Of a stretch of 39,485 bases of DNA, positions 3,341 through 39,485 are shown piece by piece. The notes beneath the pieces are model-generated. The model did not search any database. It worked only from the letters and a program-made list of their open reading frames with translations, and was not told the origin of the DNA. The stretch is from a virus (Duplodnaviria > Heunggongvirae > Uroviricota > Caudoviricetes). The stretch is from the IMG/VR virus record IMGVR_UViG_2534682294_000013, one strand, 5' to 3'. Numbering within the stretch: position 1 is the stretch's first letter; each line of letters opens with the position of its first letter. The position numbers were made by a program, and so were the translations under genes.

Positions 3341-4138
3341 TTACAACGATTTTCGAATCGTTCTTTCCCTGATTTTTGTGGCTTTTGCTTCTGCTTGCGA
3401 CAGCAGTCCTTGTTCCTGCTTGAGAATGTCTTTAAGCGGGGCGGCAAAATACACTTTCATAAACCGCCAGATATCCCGCTGAGTCAGGCCGATATTCATC
3501 GAAGAAAAATAAAGCCCAATAAGATCTTTATCCCGCCAACGACGTGGAACGCGCGTGCGAAGCTGCGCCCGGTGCAGGTCAATTACCGAAATTTTTAACT
3601 CCTCTTCCTTACCGGAAAAAGGCAAGTGCAGCAGGAAATGACAGATATAACAGTCACGGTGGTTAATGCCCGCAGCATGCATATCGTGCACCATCGTCGC
3701 GACACGCTTAATAAGCATACGCTTTACGCGAACATCTGGAGGGTTAGTCGCCCAGTCAGCACAGTAATCTTCAAGACTTATGGTTGGTGTCAGATCTTCG
3801 GTAATAATAAATGAAGTTCTGGTCAGCGGATTCATGCCTTTTTCGCCAAATGCCACCCCATACATAGTATCAACGCCGACATCCCGCAGTCGATGAATCG
3901 CATTCCATTCGCGGTCTGCGCCTAATACTGGCATCCGCAATGAGAGTAAATTTTTGATTATCTCTTTCAGGGTCGTGCCGCGATGCCATTTGAGAAAATA
4001 GCTTTTGCCCGCCATTTCAAATCGCAGAGTGCGGCGAGTTTCCAGTTCACGAAAAACCTCACCCTGCAAGGTTTTAACTTCCTCAAAAGGATCTTTACCG
4101 CGCCATAACGTGGCAAACGGCTCTTTAAGTTCAACCAT
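3341..4138 (-). CDS. waaP: LPS core heptose I kinase
   Basis: Sequence [21 protein letters not shown]... with the catalytic loop [14 protein letters not shown] chose the internal ATG at 4138, which gives 265 aa. It overlaps the waaG stop by 8 nt. The track ORF starts 3 codons earlier at 4147. Confidence 0.93.
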
Positions 4139-35092: not shown

Positions 35093-35187
35093 GGAAGATC
35101 GTCGTCTCCGGTGAGGCGGCTGGACTTCAAATCCAGTTGGGGCCGCCAGCGGTCCCGGGCAGGTTCGACTCCTGTGATCTTCCGCCA
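35093..35187 (+). tRNA. selC: tRNA-Sec (selenocysteine, anticodon UCA)
   Basis: 95 nt, GGAAGATCGTCGTCTCCGGTGAGGCGGCTGGACTTCAAATCCAGTTGGGGCCGCCAGCGGTCCCGGGCAGGTTCGACTCCTGTGATCTTCCGCCA. It has the long variable arm, the extended acceptor stem, the TCA anticodon and an encoded CCA. Confidence 0.98.
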
Positions 35188-35349: not shown

Positions 35350-36537
35350 ATGGCTCTAACCGATATACAGATCAAACGTGCAAAACCACAAGACAAACCA
35401 TACACATTGAACGATGGACAAGGTCTGTCATTGCTTATCAATCCCGATGGCTCGAAAGGCTGGCGTTTCCGTTTCCGGTTTGCAGGGAAAGCGCGGTTAA
35501 TGTCATTTGGCAGCTACGATTTAGTAAGCCTCGCAGAAGCACGTGAGAAGCGTGATATCGCCCGTAAGCAGGTTGCTAATGGCATTGACCCGGTAGAGGA
35601 ACGCAAAGCTTTAAGACTCGCTCAAAAGCTATCAACAGAAAATTCTTTCGAAGCAATATGTCGAGAATGGTATACCAACAAAGCTGATCGCTGGACTGTA
35701 GCCTATCGAGAAGAAATCATTAGGACATTCGAGCAGGATGTCTTCCCGTTCATTGGTAAACGTCCTATCAGTGAAATCAAACCATTAGAACTGCTTGAAG
35801 TATTGCGACGAATAGAGAAACGAGGAGCACTAGAGAAGACCAGAAAAGTGCGCCAAAGATGCGGTGAGGTCTTTCGTTATGCAATCATAACTGGCCGAGC
35901 TGAATACAACCCAGCACCTGATTTAGCTATCGCTCTGGCCGTTCCTAAGCCAAAACACCACCCATTTTTATCTGTCGAAGAGTTGCCTTATTTTATTCGG
36001 GATTTGGAGGCATACTCCGGCAGCATAATCACCAAAAATGCAACTAAGATAGTTATGCTTACTGGTGTAAGAACGCAGGAGATGCGCTTTGCTACGTGGG
36101 AAGAGGTTGATTTGGATAAGGAGGTTTGGGAGATACCAGCGGAACGTATGAAAATGCGTAGGCCTCACATTGTTCCTTTATCTACTCAGGTAGTTGACCT
36201 TTTTAAACAGCTCAAACCAATTACCGGTCATTACCCTTACATCTTTATTGGCAGGAACAACCGTAGCAAACCGATCTCGAAAGAAAGTGTTTCACAAGTG
36301 ATTGAGTTACTTGGTTACAAAGGCCGTGCTACAGGTCATGGATTTAGACATACAATGTCAACAATATTACATGAACAAGGGTTTGACAGTGCCTGGATTG
36401 AGATGCAATTAGCACATGTTGATAAAAATTCTATTCGTGGAACATACAATCACGCACAATATTTAGAAAATAGACGCGCAATGCTTCAGTGGTATAGTAA
36501 CTTCATATTTAATAAAATTAGTGAAGACACACTTTGA
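35350..36537 (+). CDS. int: P4-family tyrosine integrase
   Basis: 395 aa with the N-terminal arm-binding domain MALTDIQIKRAKPQDKPYTLNDGQGLSLLINPDGSKGWRFRF. The catalytic residues are in TGVRTQEMR, HGFRHT and IRGTYNH. It is adjacent to a tRNA gene. Confidence 0.93.
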   Translation: MALTDIQIKRAKPQDKPYTLNDGQGLSLLINPDGSKGWRFRFRFAGKARLMSFGSYDLVSLAEAREKRDIARKQVANGIDPVEERKALRLAQKLSTENSFEAICREWYTNKADRWTVAYREEIIRTFEQDVFPFIGKRPISEIKPLELLEVLRRIEKRGALEKTRKVRQRCGEVFRYAIITGRAEYNPAPDLAIALAVPKPKHHPFLSVEELPYFIRDLEAYSGSIITKNATKIVMLTGVRTQEMRFATWEEVDLDKEVWEIPAERMKMRRPHIVPLSTQVVDLFKQLKPITGHYPYIFIGRNNRSKPISKESVSQVIELLGYKGRATGHGFRHTMSTILHEQGFDSAWIEMQLAHVDKNSIRGTYNHAQYLENRRAMLQWYSNFIFNKISEDTL

Positions 36538-36546
36538 TTTATAAAT

Positions 36547-36576
36547 AAAAAGAGCCTCTTCCGAAGCTCTTTTTTA
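36547..36576. terminator. Bidirectional hairpin terminator shared by int and the convergent deaminase/small-ORF unit
   Basis: aaaaagagc-(10 nt loop)-gctcttttt with an A run on one side and a T run on the other. It lies 10 nt after the int stop and 6 nt after the small-ORF stop. Confidence 0.6.
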
Positions 36577-36581
36577 ATTGT

Positions 36582-36755
36582 TTATTTATTGTTCTTCAAT
36601 CTTTTATCTTCTTGTAAAACAAGATTATTTAACACTTTAATTGACTTGGAGGATAAATCATCTCCTCCTAACATATTTTTTTTCCATTCCGGCCATTCAT
36701 TAATTATTTTTTTAGTTGCAACCACATGTTTAATAAAACCATTTTCGATAGACAT
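36582..36755 (-). CDS. Small hypothetical protein (57 aa), translationally coupled to the deaminase gene
   Basis: Not in the ORF track because it is under 60 aa. The ATG at 36755 is 1 nt after the deaminase TAA, with AGGAG 6 nt upstream. Translation: MSIENGFIKHVVATKKIINEWPEWKKNMLGGDDLSSKSIKVLNNLVLQEDKRLKNNK. The stop is at 36584-36582, followed by a terminator hairpin. Confidence 0.55.
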   Translation of the reverse strand: MSIENGFIKHVVATKKIINEWPEWKKNMLGGDDLSSKSIKVLNNLVLQEDKRLKNNK

Positions 36756-36756
36756 G

Positions 36757-38277
36757 TTAAACTCCTATGATCTTTGCGAATAAGTTAACAGAAATCTGCT
36801 CTCTTTCCAAGTAAGAAATAGGCAACAGTGATATTCTTAATGACGAATTAGACTCAGTCCATTTAACAACATTTCCCGACTTATCTTTTCTCTTAATTTT
36901 ATTACCACTTCCATTAACAATGGAAAATAGATTAAAATAGACTCGTGGACCTATTCCAATAAAAGGTTCGAAAAGCACCTTTCCTTGGTTTTTTTCATCA
37001 TTAGTTATTGATTCTGAATGAAATTCATAAGCCTTACTTTTTGGATATGGCTCTATGTAAACCACCCTCTTTATTCCCGAAGCTATAATATGCTTAGCGC
37101 AGTTGTGGCATGGGAAAGTAGTGCAATATATATAAGCATCTTGAGTACTAATATTTGTTCTAGCGCATGCTAAAATAGCTTCCATTTCAGCATGCACCAC
37201 ACGACCATATTCCGTAATATCTTGAATCAGGCTGTTATTGAGGATTCTCTCAAAATTATCACGAGATTTTCTAGGTATTTGATTGAGAATATCATGTATA
37301 ATTTCTCTTTTTTGTTTAGCATTCGAATCAAAACCTCTTACATAGTCCCTTCCTTCCGGATAGTCTTCATAAATTTCGTTCTCTGCATTAAAATATGGCC
37401 AGTATAAACCACCACCAGACTTAGGAACATCATTAGCACCAGTTGACATAATAGCGTAATTTTTTGCTAATACAGCTCCAACTTGTCTTGATAAATCAGC
37501 AGATCTCAAAGCTGAAGAAAAGGCCATATACATTGCATATTCATCAAATGTTGGCGTAATAAAAGGATTACCGAATAGCAAATCAAAAACTCTTTTTATA
37601 TCATTATTAAGTTTATCATCTCGGCCATCTTGGTTTAAAAAGAAATCAGCCAAATGAAATGTATCTCTGGTATGCTGCCCATGCCCAGACTCTTCATCTT
37701 CATCTCTAGCAATCAATAACGCTGCTTTATCTTCTGGAATTCCTTTATTACGAATTAAATTATCTAACCTGCGACTCTCATCAGAAAAAATACCAAACAA
37801 TAAAAATCCCGAGCCATATACTTCTCTTAATTTATACACCTCTTCTGGATGCTTTATTGAATTTATAACATATGCAATTCCTTTTTTATTTATTTGTAAA
37901 CGTGCATGCTTTGCCCTAATCTCATTAATTTTAGCTATTGCTCCAAGAGCCAATATATAATTACATTCACTATCCTCCCTCAGTTTATTTCCCTTAGTCA
38001 TTAAGCCATCAATTCTTTGGTAATTATCTGTATAATCTCCATTACCTAAGAGCTCAGCTATCACATCAGATGAAATCCGAACTTCAGAACATTCAAATTT
38101 ATATAAGGATAATCTATCTCTTATTTTTTTTGTAATTGCTTCTAGGTCTGTGCCAACGGAAGAAACTAACCCTATTACCATTTCTGCTAAAGGTCCTGTG
38201 GATTGCTTATCCTCCCCTGAGTTTTTTAAAAGCTGAGGTGCTTCTTTATTCAATTCTGTTATCTTTGTAATTTTCAT
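36757..38277 (-). CDS. Nucleotide-kinase-like / deoxycytidylate (dCMP/dCTP)-type deaminase fusion protein; candidate anti-phage nucleotide-depletion effector
   Basis: 506-aa ORF. The C-terminal half carries the zinc deaminase signature RSADLSRQVGAVL ... VVHAEMEAI (H362, E364; nt 37194-37177) ... FPCHNCAKHIIASGIKRVVY (C390, C393). The N-terminal half has a degenerate P-loop GLVSSVGTD (no Lys) and a small-NMP-kinase-like stretch INSIKHPEEVYKLREVYGSGFLLFGIFSDESRRLDNLIRNKG. The gene is AT-rich and sits in the satellite cargo slot. Confidence 0.8.
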   Translation of the reverse strand: MKITKITELNKEAPQLLKNSGEDKQSTGPLAEMVIGLVSSVGTDLEAITKKIRDRLSLYKFECSEVRISSDVIAELLGNGDYTDNYQRIDGLMTKGNKLREDSECNYILALGAIAKINEIRAKHARLQINKKGIAYVINSIKHPEEVYKLREVYGSGFLLFGIFSDESRRLDNLIRNKGIPEDKAALLIARDEDEESGHGQHTRDTFHLADFFLNQDGRDDKLNNDIKRVFDLLFGNPFITPTFDEYAMYMAFSSALRSADLSRQVGAVLAKNYAIMSTGANDVPKSGGGLYWPYFNAENEIYEDYPEGRDYVRGFDSNAKQKREIIHDILNQIPRKSRDNFERILNNSLIQDITEYGRVVHAEMEAILACARTNISTQDAYIYCTTFPCHNCAKHIIASGIKRVVYIEPYPKSKAYEFHSESITNDEKNQGKVLFEPFIGIGPRVYFNLFSIVNGSGNKIKRKDKSGNVVKWTESNSSLRISLLPISYLEREQISVNLFAKIIGV

Positions 38278-38475
38278 ATGAAGTCATTCATCCAGTGAAG
38301 ATACAAAACATTTTTATAAATAATTCTTAGCATGTTTTCTATGTTTTCATTAAATTTTTTGAATTACCTCATGTTTTACATTTAAGCAACACAAGGTAAA
38401 CAACTGTTATATAAGAAAATTGAAAGCATAATGAATGATGTAGTTGGCTGTCACGTCTTCCCACTTCGTAGGGCG

Positions 38476-38490
38476 GATTCAGGCTGAATC
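38476..38490. repeat. 15-bp perfect palindrome in the cos-proximal non-coding region
   Basis: gattcag-g-ctgaatc has 7-bp arms around a single central base. That is too tight for a hairpin and is more consistent with a dimeric protein-binding site. Confidence 0.4.
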
Positions 38491-38734
38491 ATAGATAGTT
38501 TTAGACCTCTTATAGGACCGAATGTATAAGATGAAGGTATTAGAGGAGCTGAGCGCCTTCAAAACCGCCACTCAGTATCTAAACCGGGCAATACTTTCTC
38601 GCCCCTAACTTAGCCACTCATGGGCTCATCACGCCATCAAACATTACTGCACGATCACTAATACTCGTTCGAAACGGCACAGTACTACGGTACACCAAGT
38701 CCCGCAAAAATAAATACATTACCGCTGGCGCGCA

Positions 38735-38753
38735 GTGCTTTCCCCGCCTCGCC
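38735..38753 (-). other. P2/P4-type cos cohesive-end sequence (19 nt)
   Basis: The minus strand reads GGCGAGGCGGGGAAAGCAC. This is identical to the 19-nt cohesive end I recall for P2 and P4. Its orientation (psu -> cos -> cargo -> int) matches the P4 map. Confidence 0.8.
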
Positions 38754-38853
38754 CGCCCGCTTTGCGGGGCGGTTTTAATGCAGTTTCACTGACACGCTCA
38801 GGCCGCGCCGGGAATGGCGCGGTCTGCAGAAAATGAGGCAGGAAAACGCATGC

Positions 38854-38887
38854 AAAGCCATGCACCTTATCGATGCATGGCTTTTTT
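38854..38887. terminator. Strong hairpin between psu and cos
   Basis: aaagccatgca-(9 nt loop)-tgcatggcttt forms an 11-bp perfect stem. The T6 tract is on the + strand. On the psu (minus) strand only uuugcaugcguuuu follows. It lies 31 nt downstream of the psu stop. Confidence 0.55.
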
Positions 38888-38917
38888 CAGTAAAAACGGG
38901 CGGATTTTCGGGGAGTT

Positions 38918-39485
38918 TTACACAGACTGATGTGATGCCAGTTGCGCACTTTTACGCGAAAAAATCATGTTCTGCGCAGGGGTGAATTTTTCACGGCTGT
39001 CATCCACCGAAGCCGCGTCAGGCCTGAATCCGATGGTCGTTAAAATGTCGCTATCCTGTGCGGAATAATTAATTTTTTCCCCCTTCGCAAGCCAGGACAG
39101 GAGGGCTTCACGCAGGGCATCTGTGGCACGCTGTATGGCACAGTTTCGGGCAATGGCCGTCAGCTCACTGTAACCCATCAGCTCCGGTGCCAGTGCGGCC
39201 GCCAGTACTGTGCCGTGCTGCTGCATAAAATCATTCAGCCGGTCGCGGATGCTGATGTGCTGAACGGCTTCATGCGAACGAATATAACGACCGGCGGCCT
39301 GATTCACCTGCCATTTTCTGACTTCGATAATATTGCGTAATTCGTCCAGGCGGCTGACGTTTCTGCCTTCTCCTGACAGAAGCCGCAGATATTCCTGTTC
39401 GGCCGCTGCCAGCTCATTTTTGCGTTGCAGCCATGCTGCTTTGTTATTCTGACAGGTGTCAAAGGCCTGCTGTAAGGCTGTGCTT
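38918..39485 (-). CDS. psu: Polarity suppression / capsid decoration protein Psu of P4-like satellites (5' end outside window)
   Basis: The frame is open from the window edge: STALQQAFDTCQNNKAAWLQRKNELAAAEQEYLRLLSGEGRNVSRLDELRNIIEVRKWQVNQAAGRYIRSHEAVQHISIRDRLNDFMQQHG...SRKSAQLASHQSV. This matches my recollection of the 190-aa P4 Psu, so the start codon would lie about 5 nt beyond the window. The track shows only the part from an internal GTG. Confidence 0.85.
   Translation of the reverse strand, partial: STALQQAFDTCQNNKAAWLQRKNELAAAEQEYLRLLSGEGRNVSRLDELRNIIEVRKWQVNQAAGRYIRSHEAVQHISIRDRLNDFMQQHGTVLAAALAPELMGYSELTAIARNCAIQRATDALREALLSWLAKGEKINYSAQDSDILTTIGFRPDAASVDDSREKFTPAQNMIFSRKSAQLASHQSV

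Follow-up and report, generated by a model that had tools for sequence, protein, structure and literature searches.

The 39,485-nt stretch of DNA analysed here (hereafter the window; IMG/VR virus record IMGVR_UViG_2534682294_000013, Caudoviricetes) carries near one end the gene for a 506-residue AvcD-like anti-phage deoxycytidine triphosphate (dCTP) deaminase and, directly 3' of it, a 57-codon open reading frame (ORF) for a lysine-rich microprotein. By its pattern of conservation this frame is a genuine, translated gene, which forms with the deaminase a two-gene operon that is coupled at the stop and start codons and co-inherited across many phyla. Among the loci compared, the microprotein appears to accompany a single large clade of deaminases and not to be a universal part of dCTP-deaminase defence. 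It belongs, as its conserved core residues indicate, to a family with a WPxWK motif that is represented by PHROG 38465, and about half of the classifiable members of this family lie away from any deaminase, mostly in phage-like DNA. The ORF itself is already known, being called in RefSeq as a hypothetical protein; what appears to be new is its status as a conserved partner of AvcD-like deaminases and its place in a widespread family of phage-associated microproteins, for which no prior recognition was found in the literature searched.

The junction between the two genes reads ...ATC ATA GGA GTT TAA C ATG TCT... on the minus strand. As the original prediction, made from the sequence alone, had described, the ATG (36753-36755) stands one nucleotide (36756) past the deaminase stop codon TAA (36757-36759) and is preceded by AGGAG at a spacing of 6 nt (TTTAAC). 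The 57-residue product contains 10 Lys and no Cys, again in line with that description, and the terminator that was said to be common to the operon and the convergent integrase gene was also found: 7 nt past the microprotein stop codon (36582-36584) begins a hairpin with a 12-bp stem (AAAGAGCUUC-GGAA-GAGGCUCUUU, with GGAA as the loop; dG -15.9 kcal/mol, z -5.6 (-5.57) against shuffled sequences), which lies 9 nt past the stop of the integrase. A simple terminator scanner did not report this hairpin at 36547-36574. The frame had been called unannotated, which is true of the supplied ORF track but not of RefSeq, where the PGAP annotation lists it as hypothetical protein WP_000021256.1 in Escherichia coli O157:H7 FRIK944 and 11 other complete genomes. 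An identical layout is present in 12 of the 5,426 complete E. coli genomes in RefSeq, seven of them O157:H7.

The large gene matches the PADLOC dCTPase model PDLC02373 (E 1.2e-168) and Pfam dCMP_cyt_deam_1 (PF00383; E 5.6e-20), and its RefSeq product name is 'anti-phage dCTP deaminase'. The zinc motifs of the family (HAE and PCxxC) are present as HAEMEA and PCHNCAK and are invariant across the alignment of its relatives.

Conservation of the small ORF downstream of homologous deaminases was examined at 80 fetched loci, one per species, whose deaminases are 46-90% identical to that of the window; counts were made on 82 non-redundant loci and ORF properties on 61 extracted ORFs. The hosts, among them Proteobacteria and Firmicutes, include Enterobacterales, Vibrio, Pseudomonas, Acinetobacter, Photorhabdus and Burkholderiales, and further Myxococcota, Desulfobacterota, Planctomycetota, Paenibacillaceae, Oscillospiraceae and Bacteroidota. 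A sensitive tblastn search of the fetched loci with the 57-aa peptide gave weak matches, almost all directly 3' of the deaminase and on the same strand. An ORF of 45-75 aa with the core [FL]xx[HY]Lxx[AS]xxxVxxWPxWK[KQR]xxL is found at the deaminase stop, on the sense strand, in 62 of the 82 loci, compared with none of 82 on the antisense strand and two of 81 control regions of equal size, so that the conservation check proposed with the original prediction came out in its favour.

Start positions relative to the deaminase stop are -4 (an ATGA overlap) in 15 of the 61 ORFs and +1 in nine, the rest lying mostly between -23 and +2; 57 of the 61 begin with ATG and 53 have a Shine-Dalgarno-like motif before the start. 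W21 and W24 are invariant, and P22 and K25 occur in at least 90% of sequences; in the window peptide the core residues are F7, H10, V11, I18 and W21-P22-E23-W24-K25-K26. The C-terminal tails (median 30 residues) are unconserved, polar and, in 75%, net positive. Pairwise identity over the 26-residue core follows that of the deaminases (Mantel r 0.78, p <= 5e-4), and in a neighbour-joining tree the partner is present in nearly all deaminase clades. Conservation, coding selection and co-divergence thus support the two-gene operon with translational coupling that had been proposed. No fusion of the microprotein to an AvcD-like deaminase was found among the 120 closest deaminases.

That the frame is read as protein is supported at closer range. 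A search with the peptide as query returned nine clusters only, from E. coli, Scandinavium and Klebsiella grimontii, and at the loci fetched for those clusters (P0003 and P0004) the ORF begins in every case 1 nt past a 506-aa deaminase. Between close relatives, dN/dS of the microprotein is 0.10-0.20 at dS of 0.6-0.8 (0.06-0.09 for the deaminase) and substitutions pile up at third codon positions; the comparison of synonymous and non-synonymous changes that had been suggested as a check therefore points to coding selection. Across loci, the motif proline is encoded by CCA, CCT, CCG and CCC 22, 18, 12 and 8 times and the motif lysine by AAA and AAG 37 and 21 times; since all synonymous codons of both residues are used within the motif, selection acts on amino acids and not on DNA. 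In a Scandinavium metagenome contig (L006, 2242-3407), the satellite integrase has fallen apart into four pieces and both the deaminase and the 57-aa ORF are intact, which agrees with selection for the gene pair and not for the mobile element that carries it.

That the frame arose by chance in AT-rich DNA at the 3' end, or that the real gene is the 64-aa ORF on the opposite strand, which is present as the supplied track lists it, is a very improbable account of these data. The antisense frame also stays open and has a low pN/pS (0.27-0.39), and neither Pfam nor PADLOC gave a match for the peptide on its own, but pN/pS is lower in the sense frame (0.16-0.26), which has the ATG start and the Shine-Dalgarno sequence, whereas the antisense ORF starts with TTG and runs against the terminator. 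It looks constrained because it shares wobble positions with the microprotein frame, the pattern expected of a shadow of the sense frame, and the motif is held in the sense frame across phyla despite very different nucleotide sequences.

Searches of family libraries did not match the microprotein to any model of Pfam, NCBIfam or PADLOC, nor to HTH, RHH or AbrB families. The profile of PHROG 38465 is matched by 36 of 47 deaminase-linked microproteins (best E 4e-13), and weakly by the window peptide (E 0.0027). When 1.84 billion cluster representatives were searched with a family profile, 508 proteins, mostly of 40-70 aa, matched at E <= 1e-3; a close homologue, P0003, shares 84% identity with the window peptide and matches that profile at 3.1e-12, the 30 members of the profile including both P0003 and the window peptide. 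The PHROG 38465 proteins have the same mini-domain as the deaminase-linked microproteins but, unlike the window locus, its phage members are free or fused to other domains, with no deaminase nearby.

Motif scans that took no account of the deaminase give a measure of how the family is distributed. A scan of IMG/VR viral contigs, based on a 25-column core alignment, found 22 loci with the motif, none of which has a deaminase nearby. Among 70 non-redundant metagenome members, 23 lie directly 3' of an AvcD-like deaminase and 29 clearly do not, with the remaining 18 on contigs that are too short to tell. The notion that the family is specific to deaminase operons therefore does not hold.

The unlinked members, apparently situated in replication or nucleotide modules of phages, are either separate microproteins or form one end of a larger protein. 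A free copy of 37 aa is gp73 of the Xanthomonas jumbo phage XbC2 (UYE98502.1; MTDFLKYLEEASRIVATWPKWKQD...); tblastn of the phage collection gave no match with the window peptide, and with a more typical family member it gave XbC2 gp73 alone, weakly. Free copies adjoin ORFs that we read, from their translations and not from a family search, as primase, DNA polymerase A, ribonucleotide reductase and sliding clamp, and, read in the same way, as DNA methyltransferases. On viral contig L093, two overlapping WPxWK genes (3745-3957 and 3896-4132, both on the plus strand) are flanked by genes whose translations resemble primase and DNA polymerase A. Among the fusions, a 219-aa protein (L154, metagenome OFQY01008549.1) has the motif at residue 23 and a dCMP/cytidine deaminase domain (PF00383, E 2.4e-12); others detected with Pfam join the motif to MazG (P0277, and weakly L192), to dGTP_diPhyd_N and DUF4406 (L149) and to RNase H (L164). 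Tandem WPxWK modules occur within the single proteins P0164, P0176 and P0234.

AlphaFold2 runs with alignments of 30 and 100 sequences both predicted a helix over residues 3-19, a turn at W21-P22 and a short helix over residues 23-29; pLDDT was 72-85 over the core, and the tail was modelled with low confidence. As modelled, the core of about 26 residues is an amphipathic helix followed by a W-P turn and a short helix, and the variable, mostly basic tail is probably disordered. The predicted core is not globular by itself, as might be expected of a module that becomes ordered on binding a partner. Foldseek searches of PDB and BFVD returned nothing below E = 1.

Weak matches to the villin headpiece (Pfam VHP, PF02209) were obtained for four of 47 members (best E 0.0057). 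The headpiece HP35 (...FANLPLWKQQNLKKEKGLF, containing LPLWKQQNL) shares with the microprotein a gap-free PxWKQQxL likeness with spaced hydrophobic residues before it, and this likeness explains the four weak VHP matches. The villin headpiece, however, has three helices, whereas the AlphaFold model of the microprotein is a two-helix hairpin. Homology is not supported, given an hhalign probability of 30% over 13 columns, no villin in a PDB profile search and the null Foldseek result, and the likeness serves as a lead only.

The function that we favour for the microprotein, with about an even chance of being right, is that of a non-catalytic docking or regulatory subunit of the deaminase. Made in step with the enzyme through translational coupling, it would bind the deaminase via its conserved helix-turn-helix core, and this contact would tune deaminase activity, or tie the deaminase to a common partner that works in DNA replication or nucleotide metabolism; within the phage fusion proteins, the domain would do the same in cis. 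Several points weigh against such a subunit. The shared target in replication or nucleotide metabolism is a conjecture, and the invariant W, P, W and K residues could be purely structural. One monophyletic deaminase clade of about 15 loci, which includes a 589-aa E. coli variant, has no partner, and three further scattered losses are seen on the tree. Fusions to HTH domains (P0290 and L166) make the link to enzymes of deoxynucleoside triphosphate (dNTP) metabolism an enriched and not an exclusive one. Furthermore, the pAvcID defence plasmid carries Vibrio parahaemolyticus CP006004 468,152-466,174. A His-tag knock-in primer used on this plasmid consists of avcD codons, His6, TAA and then CTGGCACGACAGGTTTC. 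We take CTGGCACGACAGGTTTC to be vector sequence, in which case the insert would extend no further than the stop codon of avcD; the V. parahaemolyticus homologue would therefore protect E. coli without a downstream gene.

The tight coupling of a toxin to a following partner would also suit a labile, antitoxin-like protein inhibitor, in which case the microprotein would hold the deaminase off until infection shuts host expression, whereupon it would decay and free the enzyme, and phage copies would be captured antitoxins that serve anti-defence. We consider this rather doubtful. The tail is basic and probably disordered, as in proteolytically unstable antitoxins; AvcD-type enzymes are toxic when unrestrained and are restrained by the labile AvcI RNA (Hsueh et al.); and XbC2 gp73 and the 22 IMG/VR loci provide free phage homologues with no deaminase nearby. 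The window clade has no annotated AvcI-like ORF upstream, and two other E. coli variants have a small ORF upstream and none downstream, although the strongly conserved leader of the operon could still encode an AvcI-like element. Inhibition is made less probable because the mini-domain also occurs in cis fusions with active-looking phage enzymes of several unrelated kinds (dCMP deaminase, MazG, RNase H and a dATP/dGTP diphosphohydrolase domain), where an inhibitor dedicated to a single enzyme would be out of place, and because whole deaminase lineages, namely one subclade and the experimentally tested AW1.7 and U09 enzymes, do without the microprotein; the V. parahaemolyticus construct likewise would need nothing downstream.

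Members with and without a linked deaminase have the same core consensus, which suggests that they share a ligand that is not AvcD, and the number of classifiable members away from a deaminase (29, with 23 adjacent, and none of the 22 on viral contigs linked) would be expected of an independent passenger, that is, a phage-derived microprotein with its own target among the replication or nucleotide factors of the host or of an invading phage, which would have a complementary effect and not bind the deaminase. This is unlikely in our estimation, as subunits are more likely than passengers to have overlapping stop and start codons and to diverge together across many phyla, and a fusion to a deaminase-fold domain exists. 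A wider proposal, which we hold only tentatively and lean against, is that WPxWK is a handle common to enzymes that alter the dNTP pool: for AvcD-type defence it would supply the missing protein regulator, a labile brake or infection sensor that times the deaminase, and phage copies would protect their own nucleotides as decoys or anti-defence proteins, or plug enzymes into the same hub. Were this true, AvcD-type dCTP-deaminase defence would be a two-protein system with a phage-encoded counterpart.

Current models of nucleotide depletion by dCTP deaminases involve a single gene, or an enzyme held by a 5' small RNA (sRNA). A phylum-spanning deaminase clade carries the coupled microprotein, which gene callers often miss and which no domain or defence database models. 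If the microprotein regulates or targets the deaminase, the detection of these systems and the account of how they are triggered would change, and constructs cut at the deaminase stop would omit a component. The presence of the module on phage dCMP deaminase, MazG-type and diphosphohydrolase enzymes, together with the free copies, points to a shared interaction in the contest over the dNTP pool, and the phage WPxWK copies are candidate anti-defence proteins.

The features of the locus are collected in the table below. In P4-like satellites, which integrate at tRNA genes, the integrase and psu genes enclose a hotspot of defence cargo, accompanied by cos, ogr/delta and alpA-like genes (Rousset et al. 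2022, PMC9122126). The window locus has this layout, in the order tRNA-Sec, integrase, 57-aa ORF, deaminase, a 640-nt leader, cos and the start of psu. RefSeq annotates psu, ogr/delta, alpA-like and icd-like genes, the first three of them next to cos, and Klebsiella loci of matching layout have psu, ogr/delta and alpA-like genes annotated as well. This end of the window is a P4-like satellite at selC, and the deaminase-microprotein operon is cargo in its int-psu defence hotspot. The sequence GGCGAGGCGGGGAAAGCAC at 38735-38753 is presumably a P2/P4-type cos. It lies between psu and the deaminase leader, and the cargo is therefore just inside the packaging end of the satellite; the block around it is kept in loci of Klebsiella, Raoultella, 'Vagococcus' WN89Y and Yersinia.

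Table. Features of the deaminase-microprotein locus and its surroundings in the window.
Feature	Position	Strand	Basis
57-aa microprotein gene (WPxWK family), stop included	36582..36755	-	product MSIENGFIKHVVATKKIINEWPEWKKNMLGGDDLSSKSIKVLNNLVLQEDKRLKNNK; ORF list; RefSeq CDS WP_000021256.1
W21-P22-E23-W24-K25 core codons (TGG CCG GAA TGG AAA)	36681..36695	-	residue conservation
Shine-Dalgarno AGGAG in final deaminase codons, 6 nt before ATG	36762..36766	-	sequence
506-aa anti-phage dCTP deaminase (N-terminal P-loop kinase-like region and zinc deaminase domain)	36757..38277	-	PADLOC, Pfam, RefSeq name
Bidirectional intrinsic terminator hairpin, common to the deaminase-microprotein operon and the convergent integrase	36547..36574		RNA fold
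Leader block AAAACAT-N20-ATGTTTT, 28-61 nt 5' of deaminase ATG	38305..38338	-	leader alignment of four genera
P4-type tyrosine integrase, selC-side boundary of defence hotspot	35350..36537	+	Pfam Arm-DNA-bind_3, Phage_int_M, Phage_integrase
tRNA-Sec	35093-35187		tRNA annotation of window
Putative P2/P4-type cos GGCGAGGCGGGGAAAGCAC, psu-side mark of hotspot	38735..38753	-	exact match, zero expected by chance
psu	starts ~38918, runs off window		RefSeq annotation
Opposite-strand 64-aa ORF, TTG start	36589-36783	+	supplied track

Defence by dCTP deaminase has been described as a single gene, in E. coli AW1.7 and U09 (Tal et al. 2022; bioRxiv 10.1101/2021.04.26.441389). The window protein fits the PADLOC dCTPase model and shares the defence class (DefenseFinder/PADLOC 'dCTPdeaminase') and enzyme chemistry of these systems, but the AW1.7 enzyme is only 27% and that of a U09-like locus 25% identical to it, and inspection of the AW1.7 and U09-like native loci found no WPxWK ORF 3' of either gene. 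The systems described as single-gene are therefore of another subfamily. A single-gene system has no conserved neighbour, whereas the window clade has a conserved, coupled ORF. The protective AW1.7 construct has only about 83 nt 5' of the deaminase start (L112, 3501-3583) and no downstream microprotein; with so short an upstream region, there is little room for an AvcI-like RNA.

Other deaminase loci have neighbours of their own. No WPxWK ORF was found downstream of three other E. coli deaminase variants (34-37% identical), at two of which (L115, 1067-1252, and L117, 1535-1723, both on the plus strand) an acidic ORF of 61-62 aa lies just 5' of the deaminase. AvcI-like ORFs are placed immediately 5' of the enzyme by Hsueh et al. 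These upstream ORFs were rejected as WPxWK carriers, being unrelated acidic peptides in which the motif is absent. In Burkholderia phage phiE094 (Peduoviridae, P2-like), a deaminase with 33% identity to the window protein has 3' of it the gene for an unrelated 73-aa hypothetical protein (gp46; L199, 3080-3301), and more distant deaminase lineages may have small downstream partners of their own. In the clade that has no microprotein, a long ORF often comes directly after the deaminase; at three of its loci (L071, L073 and L074; offsets -1, -4 and -31) the deaminase is overlapped by such an ORF of about 870-1,000 aa, whose translation reads as type I restriction hsdR, and this suggests a different fixed genomic partnership.

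In toxin-first type II toxin-antitoxin operons, such as higBA and mqsRA, the antitoxin gene follows that of the toxin. Type II antitoxins bind and neutralise their cognate toxins, are proteolytically labile and usually have a DNA-binding domain through which they autoregulate the operon. The window operon resembles them in that a small protein is coupled downstream of a potentially toxic enzyme, and we use them as a working analogy, with no claim of membership; it differs in that the microprotein has no DNA-binding antitoxin fold and its domain is also fused to enzymes.

A close comparison is with AvcID (also DcdV-DifV), a type III toxin-antitoxin system for phage defence in Vibrio cholerae and V. 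parahaemolyticus, which shows, contrary to what the original prediction had supposed, that not all defensive deaminases are described as single-gene systems. AvcI (DifV) is a non-coding RNA of about 150-175 nt encoded 5' of avcD; it remains active when its start codons are swapped for stops, and its sequences are reported as not conserved (Hsueh et al. 2022; bioRxiv 10.1101/2021.03.31.437871; PMC10511110). A 2025 review keeps AvcID as an enzyme and an sRNA. The proposal of the original prediction that the microprotein is an unrecognised component stands, since the literature searched gives either a single gene (Tal et al.) or a deaminase with a 5' sRNA (Hsueh et al.), and PADLOC has no model for it.

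The leader of the window operon was examined with AvcI in mind. Primers for V. parahaemolyticus avcI/avcD have no match in the deaminase loci examined, and at up to three mismatches they gave three chance-level matches only, all of them in viral or metagenome loci that are unrelated. Probes made from two E. coli variants did not recover the ETEC H10407 locus. The leader contains the block AAAACATGCTAAGAATTATTTATAAAAATGTTTT, with 7-nt inverted repeats on either side of 20 nt, which is almost invariant: it is near-identical in E. coli, Klebsiella, Raoultella and Scandinavium, between which synonymous sites of the adjacent gene differ by about 45-50%. This block probably acts as a promoter or operator, or belongs to a regulatory leader. 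The predicted fold of the 193-nt leader is not significantly more stable than those of shuffled sequences (z -1.26), with compensatory change in three of 18 predicted pairs among four close sequences only. A search of 36400-39485 against Rfam gave one chance match only, to a eukaryotic snoRNA model (E 0.046, below the gathering score) inside the deaminase gene. The conserved leader could still encode an AvcI-like element.

The window operon and AvcID have much in common: a dCTP/deoxycytidylate deaminase with an N-terminal P-loop kinase-like region, the potential for a toxic enzyme, a small partner on one transcript and a location on a mobile island. They differ in the partner. The gene of the microprotein follows that of the deaminase on its 3' side and evolves under selection on amino acids, and its product is a member of a protein family, whereas AvcI lies 5' and works untranslated, and the idea that the microprotein is AvcI was rejected on these grounds. 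As AvcI is encoded 5' and acts as RNA, the microprotein is therefore a different element.

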